From the NCBI GenBank assembly GCA_963759805.1, contig CAVXAT010000002.1, forward strand, positions 137,479-201,478: a stretch of DNA of 64,000 nucleotides, in the 5' to 3' direction. The notes under the pieces are model-generated. The model saw only the letters and a list, made by a program, of their open reading frames with translations, searched no databases and was not told the DNA's origin. Source of the DNA: an uncultured bacterium. GTDB lineage: Bacteria; Babelota; Babeliae; Babelales; RVW-14. This document shows positions 19,610-62,156 of the stretch, in pieces. A program made the position numbers and the translations under genes. Numbering within the stretch: position 1 is the stretch's first letter; each line of letters starts with the position of its first letter.

Positions 19610-21526
19610 TTATAAACCTTGTTGTTCTACATCCGAATTTGTTAATTTGGACAATTCACCATTAGTTTTAAAAACTCTTTGCTTATGCTCTTTTTGACGA
19701 TGCTTGGTCCAAGCTGAAACCGGTGTGAAGTACCCAATAATTCTGGTTAAATAATCAACAATCTGATCACCACAAACAGGACAATTCTTAACTTGTCCTG
19801 CTATTGTAACGTGGCTATTTTTGCAGCGACAAAAATTATAGTTAACCGCAAAGTGCTCGCATCCGCACTCGATTGCATACTTTACTAAACGTTCCATCTG
19901 TGATGTATGGGTAAGCTTTTCTCCTATATTCAAGTGTGAAATTCCGCCGCCGGTCAATGCACGTGAAAACTCTCCATCAAGTTTTACGCGCTCTGAGATA
20001 TCACAATCAACCCAAAGTGGAATAAACTGATTCGCATACAATGGATAATCCATGCCGTAAAGCAATCTGTCCTTTGCTGCAAATTTTACAGCCAAGCTTT
20101 CTGCCGGAACCTGCTCGATATTAAATGGATTCCCAGTCTCTTTGCTTGCCTTATGCGAGTAGTCCTTAATAAATTTTAAAATTTTGTGAGCTAATGCTTT
20201 GCCCTGCGCTGAAAGCATGGTAAAGCCCATCTCATTGACACACTCATAAACCCCATTTAATCCAAATGTACTAAACATACGGGCTTCATGCATAATTCCA
20301 TAATTAAAGAATGGTAAAAATCCGGCTGCAATATTTGCTTTTAAGAGTTTACGATGCGCACTCAGTAACATTTTTGCGTCATCAAGATTTTTTTGCAAAA
20401 GCTTAAACAGAACCTCTTCTGATTTTCTAGATAAACGGCCAATACGTGCAAGATTTAAGGTAACAACTCTGTGTGACCCAAGAGACACGCCTCCATTACC
20501 AAAACTGTCAACGCCTGCTAAATCCAAGTCATTGACCAATCTACAACAGCTTGCAATTTTATTGCCCGAAGAGATATAAATATTGAAACAGCCCTTTTCA
20601 AGATTGATATTGGAAAAATATTCAAATGATTTTTGATCAACAATTTGTTGATTCTCATCAATGCGAATATTCAATGTAACAACCGGAAAGCGGTAAGGCA
20701 GCCCTGTTTTGGGATCGCCGCATTTAAACCAATCACAAAAAATGTGCTGCACCTCTGCAATCAGATCAATATCAGGTTTGGAACCGTCCGGGTAACAGAC
20801 ATCGGCAAATAGATGCTCAAGATTTGGTTTGTCAAAAATTGAAAGGTTTGTAAATGGGGACTGAAATGATGGACGTAATTTCTTATTCAAAGTGTGAACC
20901 AAAGATTGAAAATCATTTTCAACAGCTTTTCGATCTTCCTCCTTTGATAAATCCAAATTCTCTTTTTTAACAAAATATGAGTAGTTTACAAAAAAATCTC
21001 CAATCGCTATCGCGCCACCGGCCTGCTGAGCCAACTCAATTGTCACCTCTTTGACTTGGTCAATAAACGAACGGCAATGCTTTGCAGGCAGTGAATGCAA
21101 CTGCCCCCATCGACTACCTTCAAATAGAATAAATGATGTTGAGTACGCCCAACAGTAAGGAACCATGATGGAAGTACTGTCGTGAAAATAAAGATCACCA
21201 TACCAGATGGAGGTCATCAGATCTGCTGCACGACCCAAGCCAACCTCTTTGACCAAAATATTGTACAACTCATAATAACCAATAAGCTTGTACCAACTTT
21301 TTGCGATTTCGCTTAAATAGTTTCCGTACGCTTTGGATTCACTTACATTTGCATTATCATCAATTGACATCTCTGCAGTATGTTTACTCATGTACATCTG
21401 TGCCATATTTGGAATATCAAGTTGATGCGGCGCAATTCCTTCGACATCTAAAATGGCTTCGGACATCTGATTATAAACATCTATAAATTCCTTAGAAAAG
21501 GTTACTGGCAATTTTGACAGATCCAT
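19610..21526 (-). CDS. nrdD: Anaerobic ribonucleoside-triphosphate reductase (class III)
   Basis: C-terminal Zn ribbon CRCKNSH..CPVCG followed by the glycyl-radical segment TRIIGYFTPVSAWTKHRQKE. Long NrdD-type core. I prefer the start at ATG 21526 (MDLSKLP, preceded by AGGTGGA) over the ORF-track start at 21610. Confidence 0.9.
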   Translation of the reverse strand: MDLSKLPVTFSKEFIDVYNQMSEAILDVEGIAPHQLDIPNMAQMYMSKHTAEMSIDDNANVSESKAYGNYLSEIAKSWYKLIGYYELYNILVKEVGLGRAADLMTSIWYGDLYFHDSTSIMVPYCWAYSTSFILFEGSRWGQLHSLPAKHCRSFIDQVKEVTIELAQQAGGAIAIGDFFVNYSYFVKKENLDLSKEEDRKAVENDFQSLVHTLNKKLRPSFQSPFTNLSIFDKPNLEHLFADVCYPDGSKPDIDLIAEVQHIFCDWFKCGDPKTGLPYRFPVVTLNIRIDENQQIVDQKSFEYFSNINLEKGCFNIYISSGNKIASCCRLVNDLDLAGVDSFGNGGVSLGSHRVVTLNLARIGRLSRKSEEVLFKLLQKNLDDAKMLLSAHRKLLKANIAAGFLPFFNYGIMHEARMFSTFGLNGVYECVNEMGFTMLSAQGKALAHKILKFIKDYSHKASKETGNPFNIEQVPAESLAVKFAAKDRLLYGMDYPLYANQFIPLWVDCDISERVKLDGEFSRALTGGGISHLNIGEKLTHTSQMERLVKYAIECGCEHFAVNYNFCRCKNSHVTIAGQVKNCPVCGDQIVDYLTRIIGYFTPVSAWTKHRQKEHKQRVFKTNGELSKLTNSDVEQQGL

Positions 21527-21960
21527 GATCCACCTACTTTCTTTAAATATCTTTGATTTTTTGACGCAGGAAAACCTTTTACAAAAAGATCTTGCCTGAA
21601 AGGTCCACACACAATCATATCGATATTATCGATCAATTCCTGTGGTAGATCCTCAAATTCTCTTCCCGTGTAAAGAGCCTTGTAAAGTAAAATCTTTTTG
21701 CAAAGCTCTATTAAAAAATCCATTTGATCCGTTGGCTCCCCTCCCAAAAAAACTACACTCTCCGCTAACAAATTACTTTTTATTTTGGACAAAACTTCAT
21801 TCATTGATGTCAGAGTATCATCATTTCGTTCCCACAAAATAGAATTTTGGCATTCTTTGCAGCGAATACTGCAACCGGAAAAATAGATAGCTACAGCAAT
21901 CCTGTCCGGAACATCGATGAAGGACGTACAAGTACGAACTATGTATGCACTCCTGTCCAT
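21502..21960 (-). CDS. nrdG: Anaerobic RNR activating protein (radical SAM)
   Basis: CxxxCxxC cluster GCSIRCKECQN. 152 aa. Immediately upstream of nrdD and overlapping it by 25 nt. Confidence 0.8.
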   Translation of the reverse strand: MDRSAYIVRTCTSFIDVPDRIAVAIYFSGCSIRCKECQNSILWERNDDTLTSMNEVLSKIKSNLLAESVVFLGGEPTDQMDFLIELCKKILLYKALYTGREFEDLPQELIDNIDMIVCGPFRQDLFVKGFPASKNQRYLKKVGGSWICQNCQ

Positions 21961-32182: not shown

Positions 32183-32612
32183 TCCATTAAACTTATAAAC
32201 TTAAATTTTATTCTACTTAAGACGCGCTGTCATTCAGACTAAATATTAATTCTTTGCTATGTCAATTTACCAGCAGATTAAGTCAGTTTTATCAAAACTT
32301 TATCTAAACATCCATTAACGTTGATTTTGAAATTTGAAGTCGAGATAATCCACCCCGACCAAAAACATACACCAAACTTAGCAGATTTTATAAAAAATAA
32401 AACATTATAATACGAATAATAGACAAAGTGAAAAATAATACCTCTTGAAAAGAAGCATTTATCCTAAATATAAATTTTTATACGCTCCAGCCTATTGCAG
32501 GCGCCACAAATTAAAAAAATTTACAAAAACCTATTAACTAATGACCAAAAAAAATATAATGTAATTTGTGTGATATTGAAAAATACAAAACTTAATATGA
32601 AAGAGGTGCGTT

Positions 32613-32864
32613 ATGGCAGATGTTGAAATGGCAAAAATAGCCGCTTACGTTGCAGCAGGATTTTGTATGGGCATAGGAGCTCTCGGACCTGCTCTAGGCC
32701 AGGGCTTGGTTGGATCAAAAGCTTGCGAAAGTATTGGAAAACAACCGGAATCGGCAAATCTTGTAACAAAAACCATGGTACTTGCACTTGCCTTCATTGA
32801 ATCAACATCAATCTACTGTTTAGTCATTGCATTGATGCTAATATTTTTTGTAGGCAGCAAGTAA
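32613..32864 (+). CDS. atpE: F-type ATP synthase subunit c
   Basis: 83-aa hairpin protein: GIGALGPALGQGLVG..ESIGKQPE loop, then ..ALAFIESTSIYCLVIAL with the conserved carboxylate (E). Confidence 0.88.
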   Translation: MADVEMAKIAAYVAAGFCMGIGALGPALGQGLVGSKACESIGKQPESANLVTKTMVLALAFIESTSIYCLVIALMLIFFVGSK

Positions 32865-32887
32865 ATATAATCGAATAAAGGATATGA

Positions 32888-33244
32888 ATGCAAATTAATT
32901 GCACCGTCTTTATTCAGATAATCAACTTCTGGGTAACATACTTTTTTTTGCGCAAAATCCTTTTAGAGCCGGCAATGGCAATGATCCATAAAAAGAGGGC
33001 CGCAATGGACTCTTTAGCTAATCATCTAAAAGAAAAAGAGCTCGTTATAACTGGGCTTATCAACAAAAAAAGTAAAGAGCTCGTCGATTTTCGCGAACAG
33101 GTACAGTTTAAATATAAAAAGCCACAATTAAAGCCCTTAGAAATTAAAACGGATCTAATTTATGAGTCAAATCCCAAACAGATAGAAGAATTGATAAATT
33201 CAAGCAAGAATTTGATAATCGAGAAGGTTTCAAATGCACTTTGA
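32888..33244 (+). CDS. atpF: F-type ATP synthase subunit b' (b-like)
   Basis: N-terminal TM (FIQIINFWVTYFFLRKILLEP) then a long charged helix. Position between atpE and the second b gene. Confidence 0.6.
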   Translation: MQINCTVFIQIINFWVTYFFLRKILLEPAMAMIHKKRAAMDSLANHLKEKELVITGLINKKSKELVDFREQVQFKYKKPQLKPLEIKTDLIYESNPKQIEELINSSKNLIIEKVSNAL

Positions 33245-33725
33245 ATTTCAGTTTTGGGACATGCTATTTCGCTTAACAATATTTGGTTTGCTGTCGTATA
33301 AATTTTTTTCGTTTGCTAAGCAGTATTTAATTCCATACCTACGTGGGCAGATAAAGGAAGAACAGAATGCTCGACTGAATTTGATAGAAAAAGAGAACAT
33401 TTTAATATCAAGTCAGCACAAGATAGAAACTCAAATCCGACATCAACAAACCCTTTTCAATTTGCTTGAAAAAAATGTTCAATCTTGGCAAATGCTTCTT
33501 TTGACACAGAAAAACAACAAAGAAGAGGAATTTAACAAAATTAAAATATCGGCAGATCAAAAAAGAGCAGTCCAACAAAAAAATTATTTTATTGTATGCG
33601 AAAGTAAAGAGATACTTCCCTATGCCGTCAACAGCGCAGAAGCTGAACTGATTAATAAATACTCCGGACAGCCGGGTAAATTTTCATTTGATAATTTAAT
33701 TGAAAAAATAGCGGAAAAAAATTAA
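33234..33725 (+). CDS. atpF: F-type ATP synthase subunit b
   Basis: TM plus extended coiled-coil stalk. 11-nt overlap with the preceding b' gene. Followed by atpH. Confidence 0.6.
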   Translation: MHFEFQFWDMLFRLTIFGLLSYKFFSFAKQYLIPYLRGQIKEEQNARLNLIEKENILISSQHKIETQIRHQQTLFNLLEKNVQSWQMLLLTQKNNKEEEFNKIKISADQKRAVQQKNYFIVCESKEILPYAVNSAEAELINKYSGQPGKFSFDNLIEKIAEKN

Positions 33726-33739
33726 AAAGATATCTAATT

Positions 33740-34295
33740 ATGCTTACCCAAATTGATTCAGTTGCCAAAAAATACGCCATTGCCTATCTAAACCTATATA
33801 TCAGTGAACTCACAACCAAAATGGTTGACGACTTGGGCCAGATTAAAAAAATTTTTATATAAAAATAAAAAATTATATGCTTATTTAAGCATTCCAAAAC
33901 TATCTTTGAAGACGAAATTAACTTTTATTGACCGACTTTGTAACGCATTTAATCTGGCTCAAGGCGAAATTAGACTTATACGATTGTTAGTAGAACAAGG
34001 GCGCATAGAGATTCTGGATGCAACGCTCAAAAGGATTATCGAAGAATACCATATAAAAACCGGCGTGGTGCTATTAAATGTTTATACTTCACACGAAACT
34101 AATGATGCCCAGAAAATTATAATCAAAAATTTTATACATAATTTAATCAAACAAAAAACTGAAATTAAATTTTTTATTGATAAAAGTTTAATTAATGGAA
34201 TTAGAATAAAAAGTTCCACATTTTTGTGGGAACACTCCGTAAGAAAACACATTAAAAAATTTAAAAACAATTTATTTCAACAGGCCATATTATGA
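33740..34295 (+). CDS. atpH: F-type ATP synthase subunit delta (OSCP), interrupted by a 1-nt frameshift in an A7 tract
   Basis: ATG 33740 encodes MLTQIDSVAKKYAIAYLNLY..DDLGQIKK (typical delta N-terminus) and stops at 33860-33862. The rest (..KKFLYKNKKLYAYLSIPKLS..LIRLLVEQGRIEIL..IDKSLINGIRIK..) is in the +1 frame, which the ORF track starts at GTG 33804. The frames merge if A7 (33845-33851) is read as A6. Confidence 0.8.
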
Positions 34296-35812
34296 AAGAA
34301 AAAGATACTGATCTTATATCATTGTTAGAAAAAGCACTTAGCCAACAGCCTCAAGAATATCCGGATGAAATTGGAACTGTTATTAAGGTTGGCGATGGCA
34401 TTTGTAAAGTATTCGGATTAAATAACGCAACTTTAGGCGAGGTAATAGAGTTTGAAAATGGGGGAAGAGGCATAATTCTTGATATGGATGAGGATTTTGT
34501 TTCTGTGGTTCTTTTTGAAGGCACCAAGCTTGTTCTTGAGCAAGATGTTGCCAAAAGAACAGGACAAGTTTTAAGTATACCAGTAGGTAGTGGTCTTATG
34601 GGCCGAATTATAAGCCCAACCGGTATGCCACTTGATCTACTCGGAGATATTAAAGCAGAAAAATGGATGCCACTGGAACAACCATGTGCTCCTATAATTG
34701 ATCGCTCACCGGTTAATGAACCTCTCGGTACTGGCATAACAGTTATTGACAGCATGTTCCCAATCGGTAAGGGACAACGTGAGCTATTTATTGGAGATCG
34801 AGGAACAGGTAAGACCTCACTTGTCGTAGATACAATTCTCAACCAAAGAGGCAAAAATGTCATCTGCATTTATGTTTCAATAGGGCACAAACAATCTGAT
34901 ACCGCTCGTCTAATTTATTTACTTGAAAAGCATGGATCTCTTGAATATACAGTTATAGTTGAGGCAGACGCAAAAGAGAGTGCTTTAAATCTATATCTTG
35001 CTCCTTATGCAGGATGCTCAATAGGTGAATATTTTATGAGGCAGGGAAAAGACGCCTTAATCATATATGACGATTTAAGTAAGCATGCGATTGCTTATCG
35101 TGAGCTTTCTCTGTTACTCAAAAGACCTCCGGGAAGAGAAGCATACCCGGGAGACATATTTTACATTCATTCCAGGTTATTGGAGCGCGCAGGTAAAATG
35201 TCAGCTCAGTTAGGCAGTGGATCATTAACGGCCATTCCAATCATTCAAACGCAGGAAGATGACATCTCAGGATATATTCCAACCAATTTAATTTCTATCA
35301 CAGACGGACAAATTATTTTAGATACATCATTATTCAACAGTGGAATAAAGCCAGCCGTAAATGTCGGGCTTTCAGTTTCGCGTATTGGTTCTATTGCACA
35401 GACAAAGGCAATGCGTTCAGTTTCCGGTTCTTTAAAACTTGAATTGGCTCAATACTATGAACTTTTGGCATTTGTTCAATTCGGTTCAGAGCTAGATAAA
35501 GCAAGTCAAAAAGCGATAGATCGTGGCCAAAGAGCAATTGAAATTTTAAAGCAACCAGAGCATGAAACATACTCATTCGTTGATCAGGTTCTGTTTTTAT
35601 TTTTATTAAGGGAAAATTATCTAACTAAGATAGATCTACATGATGTAAAAAAATTCGTTCTTCAATTTGCATCATACATACAGGGTGCACACGGTGAAAC
35701 ATACAATAGCATCTTAAATACAAAGGACCTAACACCAAACGACCTGACTAAACTTAAAAAAGCAGCGGATGAGTTTGGAATCATTTTCTCCAGCAAAACA
35801 AGCATTTTTTGA
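34292..35812 (+). CDS. atpA: F-type ATP synthase subunit alpha
   Basis: GDRGTGKTS Walker A, LIIYDDLSKHAIAYRELSLLLKRPPGREAYPGDIFYIHSRLLERA, and ITDGQIIL. ATGA overlap with atpH. Confidence 0.96.
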   Translation: MKEKDTDLISLLEKALSQQPQEYPDEIGTVIKVGDGICKVFGLNNATLGEVIEFENGGRGIILDMDEDFVSVVLFEGTKLVLEQDVAKRTGQVLSIPVGSGLMGRIISPTGMPLDLLGDIKAEKWMPLEQPCAPIIDRSPVNEPLGTGITVIDSMFPIGKGQRELFIGDRGTGKTSLVVDTILNQRGKNVICIYVSIGHKQSDTARLIYLLEKHGSLEYTVIVEADAKESALNLYLAPYAGCSIGEYFMRQGKDALIIYDDLSKHAIAYRELSLLLKRPPGREAYPGDIFYIHSRLLERAGKMSAQLGSGSLTAIPIIQTQEDDISGYIPTNLISITDGQIILDTSLFNSGIKPAVNVGLSVSRIGSIAQTKAMRSVSGSLKLELAQYYELLAFVQFGSELDKASQKAIDRGQRAIEILKQPEHETYSFVDQVLFLFLLRENYLTKIDLHDVKKFVLQFASYIQGAHGETYNSILNTKDLTPNDLTKLKKAADEFGIIFSSKTSIF

Positions 35813-53550: not shown

Positions 53551-53762
53551 ATCCGGCTCCTTTCGGGATCAACCGCTAATATTTAACCCGTTTTTTAAAT
53601 TTCTAATTTTTTTCATTTTTCAATCATTACAAATGCATTTTTTATCGTACTATGATATAATACAGCGTAAAGCATAAAATAAGCAAATAATTATGTAAAA
53701 TCAAGTTTGTTCTTTCAAATCCTATATTTTTTTATATTTTTATATTTTTTTACTCTTTAATT

Positions 53763-53854
53763 GGAGAGATGGCTGAGTGGTTGAAAGCGACCGCCTCGAA
53801 AGCGGTTATTCCGGGAAACTGGAATCGTGGGTTCGAATCCCACTCTCTCCACCA
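53763..53854 (+). tRNA. tRNA-Ser (anticodon CGA), CCA encoded
   Basis: Manual cloverleaf: acceptor GGAGAGA/TCTCTCC; anticodon stem ACCGC/GCGGT with loop CTCGAAA; long variable arm (TATTCCGGGAAACTGGAATC); T arm GTGGG-TTCGAAT-CCCAC; 3' ACCA. Confidence 0.9.
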
Positions 53855-53868
53855 GTCTTCGCTGCTTC

Positions 53869-53939
53869 GCAGCTTCGTCTGGCAGGAAAGCAGCTTCGTC
53901 TGGCAAGCCATCCAATTTAGGCTAGTTACTAGCTTGCCA
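53869..53939. repeat. GC-rich direct repeat plus hairpin immediately 3' of tRNA-Ser
   Basis: GCAGCTTCGTCTGGCA occurs at 53869-53884 and 53890-53905 (period 21). Nested inverted repeats follow: TGGCAAGC (53901-53908) / GCTTGCCA (53932-53939), and GCTAG/CTAGC. Confidence 0.6.
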
Positions 53940-54810
53940 AAGCAACATGCTCATGTTGTAATTCAAGTACTTTGATTTTTATCTCTTCAAAAAATTGATC
54001 TATATCTCTAAGTTTTTCTATCTTAAGTAAATATGGATCGCTCCCTGCAAGCAGTCCATCAAAAAGCAGTATTAAGAAAATAAAGTAAGCAATTCCGGCG
54101 GCAGAACCAATGCCAACACTAATAGCCCATCATTATGACCTAAACTATAATTGTCCCCACGGCTACACCAAAAACCCCTGACTCTAAACAAAATATCGAT
54201 TTTTCAAAGAACCATCTTATAATTTTTCTAAGAATACCCGCGCCACGGTCGTGATCAAGCTTATTCGCAATCAAGCCATAATCCTTTTCAAAAAGTTTCA
54301 AAATCAAAGCTGTATGTTCTTTAATCAGATCATCATCCGAAGAAATGGCTTGATGAATATATTTTTCAAAATTTTCTAAATTTTGAAGATTCTCATCTTT
54401 TTGAAACAAGCAGATAATCAAATAATAGTCGCATAGTTGTGTGAGTTAACACCGCCGCGAACAACCCTACTGGAATTTTGTTATTGGGCGATTTATCAAA
54501 TTTTTCAGCCGCATCAGCGAAGACACCAGTAACCAATGATGCCATCAGATAACAAATCTCTTTAAGTGTTTTACTCGCTGCACTATGCAAAAATGATGAT
54601 GATTTTGTCCGTAAAATTCTTTTTACAAGCTCGTTATATCTCTTTTTGTCAAATTTTACAGATTTAGATTGTTCAATAGGGTACTGCTCAACAGAGTTAG
54701 GTGGAGTTGACTGAATTAGATGAGTTTACTGATTCTGCAACTAAATATGATGTTTTAACAAAAACCAGTCCCAATAAAACGGTCAAAATCAGATAAATAT
54801 TCTTTTTCAT
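53929..54810 (-). pseudogene. Fragmented (multiply frameshifted) gene for a secreted/membrane protein of unknown function
   Basis: Four consecutive minus-strand frame pieces. (1) 54810-54697, MKKNIYLILTVLLGLVFV.. signal peptide ending in TAA. (2) A frame open to 54393 (..SVEQYPIEQSKSVKFDKKRYNELVKR..HSAASKTLKEICYLMAS..). (3) 54421-54140. (4) A piece ending at TAG 53931-53929 (..AISVGIGSAAGIAYFIFLILLFDGLL..LELQHEHVALAS). Confidence 0.4.
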
Positions 54811-54995
54811 AGTTTTCTCCAGTCATGCTTTAAAGTTGCCTCAAATATAACGGTTCTCAATCTAGAAAAATTTTTGGTTAAAAGCAAGCCATATTTGACT
54901 TTTTGCTCCTTTTTGCCGATTATGATTGGTGTTATAGTTGCTGCGCAGAACCGCTTAAAACAACTATTATTTCAATCACTATAAATTTGGATATT

Positions 54996-56148: not shown

Positions 56149-57504
56149 TTAAGAGATAATTTTATTATCACACACTAATTTTTTATTGGTTTTGCCAACA
56201 TATAAAGCTAACACAATCCAGAGCCCTACCATTCCCAGAGAAATTATAGAACCAAAAAAAAGTAGCGTAGACATGTCAACAAAAATTGCATTTATGGCAG
56301 CCCCAAAAGACTTTGCTGATCGACTGCCAAATACGTCAATCCAGCTTTTCGCCTTAAATTTAATATCGCTACTGGTAGGAATATACATAATCTCAACACA
56401 GGGCTTATTTAATGCGTAACTAAAGCCTTTCAACATAATCATCGCTACAAAAAACGAATATAGATTCGGATTAATCCAAACAAATAAAACTAAAAATCCA
56501 ACAAGAGTGGGAAATAAAATTAGAGAAAAGATCAAGCCAAATCTTCTTATAAGAAAACTCGTACCAATCAATGAAATAACAAGAGCAAGCAAGTTGGCAT
56601 AAAAACCATATGCACCAAGTAACTCCGTCAAAGTCTCAACTGATGGACAAATGCCGTCAGCCAGAAATTTCATCTGATAATCAATAATGGTTCCAATAAT
56701 CTCATAAAGCGTTATCAAGCCCAATATTCCCAATAAATATGGTTTTGATAAAAGCAAGCGCAATCCTTCTATTGGCCCGGTAGATGCGTCTATTTGCTCT
56801 GTAGATGCGCCTGAATCTTTTATGATACATTCAGGCGCAAATTTAGAATAATTTTTTACAAAATAACTTACCAAAAACGGGACAATCATTATGCCACACA
56901 CCACAACAAGAAGCAACGTTGTAATACCTATCACACTCGCCATTCTGGCCAATAGAGGTCCAACAACTGATCCAATTTGAGCGCCACAAATAATTAGCGC
57001 ATACCCTTTTTTAGCAGAATTCGTATCATTTGTACTTGCAACAAACGACCAAAAGAGCGCAACAGCCAAAGACCCAAAACTTTCAATGCTCAAATAAATT
57101 ATCCAACCAAGAATTCGTCCCTTATCTAAAACCGGATTGGCCAAACCAATGGTGGGATGAGCAACAAAATATGCTATACCCAAAAACAGAGAGGCATAAA
57201 ACAGAAAAATAATGTAAAAAAGTCGATGCTTCTGAACCAGATCAACAAGCTTTGAATAAATTAAAATAAGAGGAATCATTATGAGAACTGATGCAATTTT
57301 TGCATATGGTAGATAACATTTTCCAACAATCCGCATGAAAAGTGCGTCTTTAAGAGGTCGCATCAACCAATAAGTTCCAACAATAAAAAGATATGTGCAT
57401 GCAAGCAGACTAAGTCTTCTAATTTCTTTAGCGGTTAACCCAATCCAAAAAAAACGAACCATCCGCTTTAACATTGCAAAATCTCCCGAAGAATATTTAG
57501 TCAA
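56149..57504 (-). CDS. ATP/ADP translocase family nucleotide transporter (Tlc/NTT), paralog B
   Basis: About 12 TM helices. N-terminal KEIRRLSLLACTYLFIVGTYWLMRPLKDALF and C-terminal YALNKPCVEIMYIPTSSDIKFKAKSWIDVFGSRSAKSFGA parallel Rickettsia/Chlamydia Tlc/Npt motifs (..LRSIKD.., ..KNMAYIPLD..VKGQAAVEVIGGRLGKSGGA). Confidence 0.8.
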   Translation of the reverse strand: MTKYSSGDFAMLKRMVRFFWIGLTAKEIRRLSLLACTYLFIVGTYWLMRPLKDALFMRIVGKCYLPYAKIASVLIMIPLILIYSKLVDLVQKHRLFYIIFLFYASLFLGIAYFVAHPTIGLANPVLDKGRILGWIIYLSIESFGSLAVALFWSFVASTNDTNSAKKGYALIICGAQIGSVVGPLLARMASVIGITTLLLVVVCGIMIVPFLVSYFVKNYSKFAPECIIKDSGASTEQIDASTGPIEGLRLLLSKPYLLGILGLITLYEIIGTIIDYQMKFLADGICPSVETLTELLGAYGFYANLLALVISLIGTSFLIRRFGLIFSLILFPTLVGFLVLFVWINPNLYSFFVAMIMLKGFSYALNKPCVEIMYIPTSSDIKFKAKSWIDVFGSRSAKSFGAAINAIFVDMSTLLFFGSIISLGMVGLWIVLALYVGKTNKKLVCDNKIIS

Positions 57505-58837
57505 TCAACTGTTTATTCTCAATGACTTTTGTAAAGTTTTTTCCAACCAGACCCGCAACAAATATCCAACCAGCTATGCAACACAAAGCAAAGCCACCTA
57601 CCAAGCTGATGTAGCTTCCCATAAGCCCATTTACTAACGATCCTGAAGCCTTTGATAATCGCATACCAAACATATCAATCCAAGCTTTAGATTTATATTT
57701 AATACTCTTTATTGTAGGAATATATAAACTTTCCTTAGCCGGCTGGTTAAATGCATAGTTTAACGATTTTCCAATTAACATCAAATATGTAACCGTATGT
57801 AAAGAGGGGTGCAAAAGATATGCAACCAAGGCTGCCCCAATTAAAACAGGATAAACAACCAAACAAAATGGTATTCCATATTTACGCTGAAAATATGACG
57901 TTCCAAATAACGCAAAGACACATGCAATTACTTGTACAGCCAAAGCATAATTAAATAAAAATTTATTTACAGCTCCCGGATCTATGTAGGAAGCCTTGAC
58001 CATTAAAGAGAGCTGAAAACCAATAACCGTCGTAATAAATTCTTGGAAAAAAATTATTGCAAAAATTCCTGCAACATACGGTCTTGTTAGCAGTATTTTT
58101 AGACCTTCATTGAATCCAACATTCTCCTTTGCCATCTGTTCAGACTCTATTTTAACAACCTCCTCATAGCCCTGAGGATTATTTTTAATAATAAAGTGCT
58201 TTAAAACATAAACAATAACTGCCAACATTAAAAACATTGACACTGAGATTGCCGTAATAATCGGTACACTCTGCGCATATTTTGTGGGATCGTTTGAAAG
58301 AAAATTTCCAAGCAAAATAAACAATACACCACCAAGTTGCGTACCAAATGCTATCAAGCCATAACCCTTTTGGGCCGATTCCGGCGTTGTTACGTCATTG
58401 ATAAACGACCAATAAAGCGAAATCATCAATGTGATAAAGCTTTCAACAAATAAATAGTAAATCCACCCAATCCAACGCGATGGAGAAACGGTTGTATTTG
58501 TAAGTCCAATTACAGGATCACACAAAAAATATACAAGAATGAAACCAAGAACTACATAAAACCCAACCACAAAATAAATAAGTTTTTCTTTTTCTAACAA
58601 ATCCACAAGTTTTGAATAAAAAAGAACAACCGGGAAAAGCAGTGCTAATGAGATAAGTTTGGCATATGGAAGATAAAGAGGCCCTACAATATTAATAAAA
58701 ATGCTTTCTTTAAGTGTCTTAAGCGGCCAGAAAGCTCCAATCAAAAAGAAAAAACCCAAAGCAAGCAGTAAGAACTTCGAAAGCTCTTTGCCCTGCAGGT
58801 CACCCCAGAAAAATTTGACTACCCTTAAAATTTTCAT
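57497..58837 (-). CDS. ATP/ADP translocase family nucleotide transporter (Tlc/NTT), paralog A
   Basis: KELSKFLLLALGFFFLIGAFWPLKTLKESIF.., ESFITLMISLYWSFINDVTTPESAQKGYGLIAFGTQLG, YAFNQPAKESLYIPTIKSIKYKSKAWIDMFGMRLSKASGS. 8-nt overlap with paralog B. Confidence 0.8.
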   Translation of the reverse strand: MKILRVVKFFWGDLQGKELSKFLLLALGFFFLIGAFWPLKTLKESIFINIVGPLYLPYAKLISLALLFPVVLFYSKLVDLLEKEKLIYFVVGFYVVLGFILVYFLCDPVIGLTNTTVSPSRWIGWIYYLFVESFITLMISLYWSFINDVTTPESAQKGYGLIAFGTQLGGVLFILLGNFLSNDPTKYAQSVPIITAISVSMFLMLAVIVYVLKHFIIKNNPQGYEEVVKIESEQMAKENVGFNEGLKILLTRPYVAGIFAIIFFQEFITTVIGFQLSLMVKASYIDPGAVNKFLFNYALAVQVIACVFALFGTSYFQRKYGIPFCLVVYPVLIGAALVAYLLHPSLHTVTYLMLIGKSLNYAFNQPAKESLYIPTIKSIKYKSKAWIDMFGMRLSKASGSLVNGLMGSYISLVGGFALCCIAGWIFVAGLVGKNFTKVIENKQLID

Positions 58838-59038: not shown

Positions 59039-59296
59039 TTAAAAATCAAGAATAGCGACTGCTTTATTATTTTCCACACTGAAAATACCGCCGCTAACAA
59101 ATAGCTCCACACCATCATCAAGCCCAACTTTTTTGTAAAGCAGGCTATTTCCCTTTTTTATAACCGATATCAATGGACTGTGGCCCGGCCCAACCAAAAA
59201 GCACCCACTCAAACCCTCAACCTCAACCCACTCAACTGTTATCAACTGAGTTCCCATCGGAGAGATAATTTCTAAATCAAAATGATTTTCGTGCAT
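59039..59296 (-). CDS. atpC: F-type ATP synthase subunit epsilon, N-terminal beta-sandwich domain only
   Basis: Located directly downstream of atpD. FDLEIISPMG...VEVEGLSGCFLVGPGHSPLISVIKKG..L.......LFVSGGIFSVENNKAVAIL fits the epsilon N-terminal domain. At 85 aa it has no room for the about 45-aa C-terminal helical hairpin. Confidence 0.75.
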   Translation of the reverse strand: MHENHFDLEIISPMGTQLITVEWVEVEGLSGCFLVGPGHSPLISVIKKGNSLLYKKVGLDDGVELFVSGGIFSVENNKAVAILDF

Positions 59297-59313
59297 AAAA
59301 AATCCCTAAATGG

Positions 59314-60855
<1,542 letters not shown>

Positions 60856-60890: not shown

Positions 60891-62156
60891 TTAAATAAAT
60901 AAACTGACTATTGCAGCATTCAAAAGATTTGCAAGAGTACCACCAAGCAGTGCCGTTAGCCCAAGTTTTGTTAATGTTATCCGTTTTTCAGGACAAATGG
61001 CACCAAGTCCACCGATTTGAATTCCGATACAAGAAAAATTTGAAAAACCGGCAAGCGCATAAGTCAAAATTGCTTTGCTGCGATCTGTAAGCAAAGACTT
61101 TGCAAATTCAGAATATGCGACAAATTCATTAATAACAAGTTTTTTACCAAGCAAAACGCCTGCAGTTCCACTGTCGGCCCAAGGAACGCCAATCAACAAT
61201 GCAACCCAACGGAACGCCTGTGCGAACAAGCAATTTAACGTTAACGGCTCCTTTAAAACCGGCATAATGTGATAAGAGATTAGAAAGCTTGTTGATGCAA
61301 ATAGGACATAATCAACCAATGCAATCAAACTTATAAATGCAACCAGCATTGCGGCAACATTAACTGCCAAACGAAGCCCATCTCCCGTTCCGGATGCGAT
61401 AGCATCCAAAACATTACTCGCTGTTTTTTCCATTTTTACACTGCTGCCTGCCATTGTTTCTGGTGTTTCGGTCTCCGGAATCAAAATTTTTGAAATTAAA
61501 ATTGCCCCAGGAATTGCCATAACACTTGCAGAAATTAAGTGAACAAGCGGCACCCCCATCATCCCATAAACGGCCATAATGGCACCACTCAGGTGAGCCA
61601 TACCACTAACCATGACGGTTAACATTTCTGAATTTGTCATTTTTGCAAGATAATGGCGAATTAACAACGGCGCCTCGGTTTGACCGAGCATGCTGTTGGC
61701 AGCCACCGATAATGTTTCTGCCCCGGATGTTCCAAGAATTGGCCTAATCACCCAGGCCAAACCTTTTACTAGAAGCTGTACAAAGCCAATGTGATACAGC
61801 AAAGACATTAATGCGCCAAAAAAGATAATTATTGGCAAAACCTTAATGGCAAAAACAAACCCCCAAGGCCCACCGGAATTTGCCAGATTTCCAAAAACAA
61901 ACGCACATCCACTGTCTGCAAATCCATACAACGCCCTAAATCCCTGGGAAATTTGTATAAAAATATCCCGACCCAAAGTCGTTTTTAAGATAAGAAAAGA
62001 CAGAATAAGTTGCATGATTATTGCAGAAAAAACTAATCTCAGCTTAATGTTTTTTTTATGCCGCGAGAATAAGAAAGCAATTCCAAGAATTACCCCAATG
62101 CCAATAATACTCATGAAATGGTTATCTTGAAGCAAATAATCGATAATAAAAGTCAT
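60891..62156 (-). CDS. nupC: NupC/CNT-family concentrative nucleoside transporter
   Basis: GAETLSVAANSMLGQTEAPLLIRHYLAKMTNSEMLTVMVSGMAHLSGAIMAVY and C-terminal ..FSNFSCIGIQIGGLGAICPEKR.. are typical NupC blocks. Confidence 0.85.
   Translation of the reverse strand: MTFIIDYLLQDNHFMSIIGIGVILGIAFLFSRHKKNIKLRLVFSAIIMQLILSFLILKTTLGRDIFIQISQGFRALYGFADSGCAFVFGNLANSGGPWGFVFAIKVLPIIIFFGALMSLLYHIGFVQLLVKGLAWVIRPILGTSGAETLSVAANSMLGQTEAPLLIRHYLAKMTNSEMLTVMVSGMAHLSGAIMAVYGMMGVPLVHLISASVMAIPGAILISKILIPETETPETMAGSSVKMEKTASNVLDAIASGTGDGLRLAVNVAAMLVAFISLIALVDYVLFASTSFLISYHIMPVLKEPLTLNCLFAQAFRWVALLIGVPWADSGTAGVLLGKKLVINEFVAYSEFAKSLLTDRSKAILTYALAGFSNFSCIGIQIGGLGAICPEKRITLTKLGLTALLGGTLANLLNAAIVSLFI

Follow-up and report, generated by a model that had tools for sequence, protein, structure and literature searches.

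A one-base frameshift in atpH of a Babeliales genome bin is placed outside the neighbouring A7 run and is most likely an assembly error

The gene for the delta subunit of the F-type ATP synthase (atpH; delta/OSCP) is broken by a single base in a genome bin from an uncultured bacterium of the order Babelales, and the question raised by this locus is whether the break belongs to the organism or to its assembly. The sequence analysed here, referred to as the window, is a stretch of 64,000 nucleotides (contig CAVXAT010000002.1, positions 137,479 to 201,478), and all coordinates below are those of the window. The sequence bears out an earlier note in that the frame opening at ATG 33740 on the plus strand runs for only 40 codons (MLTQIDSVAKKYAIAYLNLYISELTTKMVDDLGQIKKIFI*) before a TAA stop at 33860–33862, with the rest of the gene continuing in the +1 frame, which is open from 33792 to the TGA at 34293–34295 and encodes ...WARLKKFLYKNKKLYAYLSIP.... 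The 5' piece, ORF1 (33740–33862, plus strand), is 40 aa long, and its TAA is premature, being met in frame 0 owing to the surplus base. The gene caller split the gene and called a product of 163 aa (P0004).

The identity of the gene was also correctly recognized, and the two pieces together do make up a complete delta protein. When the frames of atpH (33740–34295, plus strand) are joined by reading the A7 run as A6, the resulting 184-aa protein covers the whole of the PF00213 (OSCP) model (1–172 of 172, 78.5 bits against a Pfam cutoff of 22.3) and lies above the cutoff of the TIGR01145 delta-subunit equivalog (74.2 versus 57.5 bits). Of the separate pieces, ORF2 alone matches PF00213 with 71.7 bits and ORF1 alone gives no match. 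The position of the gene, between the stator b gene(s) and atpA, is that expected of delta. An uninterrupted frame of about 180 aa is missing from the window and is found in a composite of two contigs from the same strain (L092 and L091, described below), as well as in all 17 relatives compared, in which the delta protein is intact, 184–185 aa long and 57–93% identical.

Where the surplus base sits is less obvious than it appears. Both frames are open across 33792–33862, so that loss of any single base in this stretch restores the ORF, and a scan of every possible deletion returned an open frame for single-base deletions anywhere from about 33789 to 33860. Therefore, the seamless join reported when the A7 run at 33845–33851 is read as A6, though it does yield a continuous 184-aa ORF, is uninformative on the site of the lesion, and homology is needed to place it. 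A family HMM was built from the 17 relatives and each possible single-base deletion was scored with it. Deletions at 33835–33837 scored 331.0 bits and those at 33838–33840 scored 330.4 bits; deletion in the A7 run scored 327.9 bits, approximately 3 bits below the upstream deletions. When the DNA is aligned to that of L001, the closest relative (93% protein identity), the gap falls in GGGCC/AGA and, counted by hand on that alignment, the upstream join leaves 1 mismatch around the junction and the A7 join leaves 6 in 12 nt. The +1 frame upstream of the A7 run already encodes A-R-L-K-K-F-L-Y, and with A33840 removed the junction reads L-G-R-L-K-K-F-L-Y, which fits the family consensus [RK]-L-[KR]-x-F-L-Y, the [RK]-L-[KR] part being present in nearly all members. 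The A6 join produces G-Q-I-K-K instead, and this previously proposed junction is not supported, as Q and I occur at those places in none of the 17 relatives. At the codon level, the window has GGC-C-AGA-TTA, the same strain has GGC-CGA-TTA and the relatives have GGC, GCC or TCC followed by AGA-TTA. Taken with the same-strain contigs, these comparisons identify the surplus base as A33840 (plus strand), which is flanked by C33839 and G33841 and lies outside the A7 run that begins 5 nt downstream. Joining 33740–33839 to 33841–34295 gives an intact atpH of 555 nt encoding 184 aa. A change of A7 to A6 was rejected as the site of the lesion on the basis of the DNA alignment, the HMM scan and the presence of A7 in an in-frame contig of the same strain.

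The same-strain sequences are two Logan contigs from the public run ERR11523656, L091 (7,512 bp) and L092 (1,305 bp), which encode exactly the AtpA and b-subunit proteins of the window. Over ~6,970 and ~1,295 nt, respectively (~8.3 kb), neither has a substitution relative to the window, and the sole difference is one frameshifting indel: both contigs have GGGCCGATTA (GGGCC-GATTA), and the window has GGGCCAGATTA. A33840 is absent from both and L091 retains the full A7T5 seen in the window, which runs counter to the earlier placement of the extra base in the A7 run; L092 stops after the sixth A. Combining L092 and L091 through their 16-nt overlap yields a 555-nt atpH identical to that of the window minus A33840, and its translation is an uninterrupted 184 aa, reading ...DDLGRLKKFLYKNKK... 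across the junction. An independent assembly of the same strain is, therefore, free of the indel in both contigs. The Logan contigs are themselves assemblies, made from k-mers seen at least 2 times. L091 begins at window position 33834 and L092 spans 32545–33850, and each has an end no more than 16 nt from the frameshift. L092 has its start 2 nt ahead of an A8 run and its end in the A7 run. These breaks may reflect read heterogeneity or low coverage in ERR11523656. Exact look-ups of three other window proteins found no further same-strain sequence on record, JGI metagenome contigs scanned for the junction with CGA, AGA or CAGA allowed gave no matches, and a full-text literature search for the run ERR11523656 found no papers. 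Candidate strings that distinguish the alleles across 33800–33880 are GGCCGATT, GGCAGATT and GGCCAGATT, and the corresponding junction peptides are DDLGQIKKFLYK for a slippage product and DDLGRLKKFLYK for the intact allele.

The closest genomes, judged by AtpA, are metagenome-assembled genomes (MAGs) of Candidatus Babeliales/candidate division TM6 (Dependentiae), at 91%, 89% and 74% identity. All eight related DNA loci examined are in frame and have AGA or AAA at the affected codon, which is CGA in the same-strain contigs and C+AGA in the window. For the corrected atpH, dN/dS values against the relatives are 0.10–0.22, which points to purifying selection on the gene across the clade. Comparison of the homopolymer tract in sister genomes, as the earlier note had suggested, found the relatives in frame with A6T6, AAGAAAA or AAAGAAA at this place, and the tract itself is unconserved. 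In the correct frame, the A7 of the window, which is followed by T5, is ordinary coding sequence, TTA-AAA-AAA (L-K-K), made up of the last A of a TTA codon and two AAA lysine codons. The core genes of TM6 genomes include those of ATP synthase, which is thought to run in reverse there, hydrolysing ATP to maintain a proton gradient, and TM6 bacteria take up host ATP via translocases (PMC4776705).

The split is real in the deposited sequence, and we consider that the gene itself is most likely an intact and ordinary atpH in which A33840 is a one-base assembly or consensus error. The CGA of the same strain and the AGA of the relatives are synonymous arginine codons, and the CAGA of the window would represent both, each retained. 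If co-occurring strains differed by C/A here, a consensus or polishing step may have represented this as an insertion together with a deletion and kept both bases, although the AGA allele that such a collapse would need was observed only in L001, which is from another sample and shows ~4% DNA divergence in atpH. The finding of one frameshifting indel and zero substitutions in ~8.3 kb fits a technical error better than population divergence, because populations that had really diverged would be expected to show neutral substitutions long before a conserved gene took on a frameshift. The inserted A matches neither adjacent base, which is unusual for a spontaneous insertion of one base. No other split gene was seen in the window by tblastn of the relatives' ORFs, a greedy ORF map or Pfam searches of suspicious neighbouring ORFs; hence, any errors there are sparse. 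With the error removed, delta would be made in the cell as a 184-aa protein (...DDLGRLKKFLYKNKK...) tying F1 to the b stator, and its translation is probably coupled to that of atpA via an ATGA overlap. Of the three explanations originally offered, a sequencing or assembly error is thus the best supported, though not as a homopolymer miscount, and rescue by slippage is not supported. The A6 that was expected at read level if the gene were sound is contradicted by the A7 present in full in L091, yet the ordinary, intact atpH that A6 would have implied is still the likeliest state of the gene.

The other readings of the locus differ considerably in how well they account for these observations. 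A homopolymer miscount, in which a true A6 was reported as A7, would also give an open 184-aa frame, and the end of L092 after its sixth A could hint at length heterogeneity in the reads. However, L091 is in frame with an A7T5 identical to that of the window, and the excess of mismatches to the closest relative, the Q and I unseen in relatives and the 3-bit deficit make a miscount very improbable. We attach scarcely more than nominal weight to a real frameshift from which full-length delta, with G-Q-I replacing G-R-L, is still made by recoding, be it that one A would be lost in transcription of the A7 run, 5 nt downstream of the lesion, or that ribosomes would shift +1 within A-AAA-AAA-UUU-UUA-UAU or at UUU-AUA-UAA. 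The two open frames would permit it, a slip in A7 leading to a full-length protein that scores 327.9 bits against the family HMM, and there is precedent in Blochmannia and Buchnera, where slippage at poly(A) tracts rescues frameshifted genes (PMC3017870). However, the documented cases involve tracts of at least 9 bases (PMC3017870), whereas here the indel lies outside any such tract and the nearest run has 7. The frequency of slippage grows exponentially as runs lengthen, single-base slips in A/T runs mostly add rather than remove a base, and a transcriptome-wide survey recorded zero frame-restoring events (PMC5574713). Moreover, the frameshift is not kept across populations or species, being absent from the 17 related proteins, the eight DNA loci and L091/L092, A7 is not conserved as a tract, and inspection by eye of the sequence upstream of the site showed neither a Shine–Dalgarno-like stimulator nor a stop context prone to shifting. 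A mixed case, in which the base is real and a low level of delta arises through an A7 slip or a +1 shift in A-AAA-AAA-UUU, appears similarly far-fetched. The nearness of A33840 to the A7 run is a mild coincidence: the window contains 105 A/T runs of at least 7 (about one per 600 nt), and ~3% of its positions lie within 5 nt and ~12% within 35 nt of one. If the bin was assembled from long reads, one might speculate that this nearness reflects harder base-calling beside A7T5. The ORF map revealed no other A/T run of at least 7 in the window that breaks a gene.

A more substantial alternative, though in our judgement still an unlikely one, is that the population behind the bin truly carries the insertion, either as a recent inactivating mutation of atpH or as an allele segregating beside the in-frame CGA. 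Duplication of a C in an ancestral GGC-AGA could have produced GGC-C-AGA, the CGA allele being a revertant that then lost the A; in a milder variant, the CAGA frameshift allele and the in-frame CGA revertant could coexist and record an AGA to CGA switch via a frameshifted intermediate. Relative to an ancestral AGA the surplus base is readable as a duplicated C, a natural type of mutation; the base is present in the deposited sequence, where the gene was called as split; and both Logan contigs break at the site, where the reads may be heterogeneous. A short-read de Bruijn assembly as the source of the bin would mean that GGCCAGA is present in actual reads, and would speak for a true variant over an artefact. 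Selection on ATP synthase could also be weaker in bacteria that, like those of TM6, import host ATP via translocases (PMC4776705), two of which are encoded in the window. Against this, the only independent data set from the same strain assembled the in-frame allele, ~8.3 kb is without any other difference, there is no further decay in atpH or in the other atp genes, atpH is under purifying selection across the clade, and ATP synthase is core in TM6 (PMC4776705).

The ATP synthase genes of the window lie at two sites approximately 25 kb apart, 32613–35812 on the plus strand and 59042–60837 on the minus strand. At the first, the order is atpE, two b-like ORFs, atpH and atpA, and this is common to the relatives. 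The cluster starts with atpE (c subunit; 32613–32864, plus strand; PF00137, 66.3 bits) and is followed by ORFs of 118 aa (32888–33244, plus strand), which overlaps the next ORF, and 163 aa (33234–33725, plus strand). Neither of the latter has a Pfam match at E ≤ 0.01. Judging from their position between atpE and atpH, which is kept in all Babeliales relatives, they may be highly divergent b'/b stator subunits. The atpA gene (alpha; 34292–35812, plus strand) matches PF00006, PF00306 and PF02874, encodes a protein 91% identical to that of a Babeliales MAG, and its ATG overlaps the atpH stop (ATGA), as read from the sequence. On the 3' side of atpA is a 153-aa ORF that is lipoprotein-like and has no Pfam match, and the layout around atpA is the same in the relatives. 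At the second site, atpD (beta; 59314–60837, minus strand) and atpC (epsilon; 59042–59305, minus strand) are both in frame and were identified by Pfam (PF00006, PF02874 and PF02823 for the pair). Neither atpB (a subunit) nor atpG (gamma) was found among the window ORFs scanned. The atpD/atpC pair is flanked by a tandem pair of TLC ATP/ADP translocase genes and by a gene for a CNT-type nucleoside transporter (56149–58837 and 60891–62156), and together these form a small cluster of host-exploitation and energy genes. This content fits the energy-parasite lifestyle described for TM6 (PMC4776705).

Further features of the window were recorded in passing. Directly upstream of atpE, 32516–32605 is 73% identical over 30 codons to a related locus (L011) when translated, in a frame that differs from that of atpE, and is probably a leader that is conserved but non-coding and carries an indel; in another relative (L008) a 60-aa ORF has been called at the matching position. 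The stretch 53600–54900, beside tRNA-Ser(CGA) (53763–53854), holds only small ORFs (66–110 aa, minus strand, no Pfam matches), which could be small genes of unknown function or a decayed gene. At 19610–21960 on the minus strand, the genes for NrdD (666 aa), an anaerobic ribonucleotide reductase, and NrdG (152 aa), the radical-SAM activase of NrdD, share ~100 nt. This and other adjacent pairs were considered as possible split genes and rejected, as Pfam indicates separate genes.

The atpH of this Babeliales bin, most likely intact but for an assembly error, should be counted as intact when the completeness of its ATP synthase is judged. The locus also holds a more general caution, as a frameshift beside a homopolymer invites a slippage story, and where overlapping open frames let any nearby one-base change restore the ORF, the lesion can be placed only by homology or by independent sequence. 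Were the base real, a core energy gene would have been knocked out recently in an energy parasite, and an organism with ATP/ADP translocases, such as the two encoded in the window, might tolerate the loss of ATP synthase. In that event ORF1 would retain only ~33 native residues, and translation of ORF2 would need to begin at an internal GTG, leaving out the first helices of the N-terminal domain. The N-terminal domain of delta/OSCP binds the N-terminus of alpha. The premature stop would in addition undo the coupling to atpA through ATGA. Should the base be real and recoding occur as well, atpH would be the first recoding-rescued core gene in the Dependentiae, with the slip site apart from the lesion.

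Among the closest known systems is the delta subunit/OSCP of the bacterial F1Fo ATP synthase (PF00213, TIGR01145), to which atpH without the extra base gives a full-length, 184-aa match; the gene sits between b-type stator genes and atpA, overlapping the latter by ATGA. It differs in the one-base interruption of atpH, in having two b-like ORFs without a Pfam match, and in the lack of atpB upstream and of atpG, atpD and atpC downstream, atpD and atpC being ~25 kb away. With the frameshifts in long poly(A)/poly(T) tracts that transcriptional slippage rescues in Buchnera and Blochmannia (Tamas et al. 2008, as cited in PMC5574713; PMC3017870), it has in common a host-dependent bacterium of AT-rich genome, a gene of essential type that shows a one-base frameshift but no other decay, and an A run within a stretch where both frames are open; in contrast to them, its indel is not in the run, which is 7 and not 9–12 bases long, and neither the 17 related proteins nor the contigs of the same strain have the frameshift. 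Programmed +1 ribosomal frameshifting of the prfB/RF2 type likewise places the downstream ORF in the +1 frame. However, the site in atpH is unconserved and by eye has no in-frame stop and no upstream Shine–Dalgarno-like stimulator, and with all orthologues in frame this possibility was rejected. The closest parallel for the break itself appears to be the indel errors that consensus building or polishing leaves in MAGs, especially at strain-variable sites: a conserved gene is split by an isolated one-base indel that an independent assembly of the same strain does not have, and the indel falls where strains differ between the arginine codons CGA and AGA, the atpH case differing in that it is known from assemblies rather than at read level.
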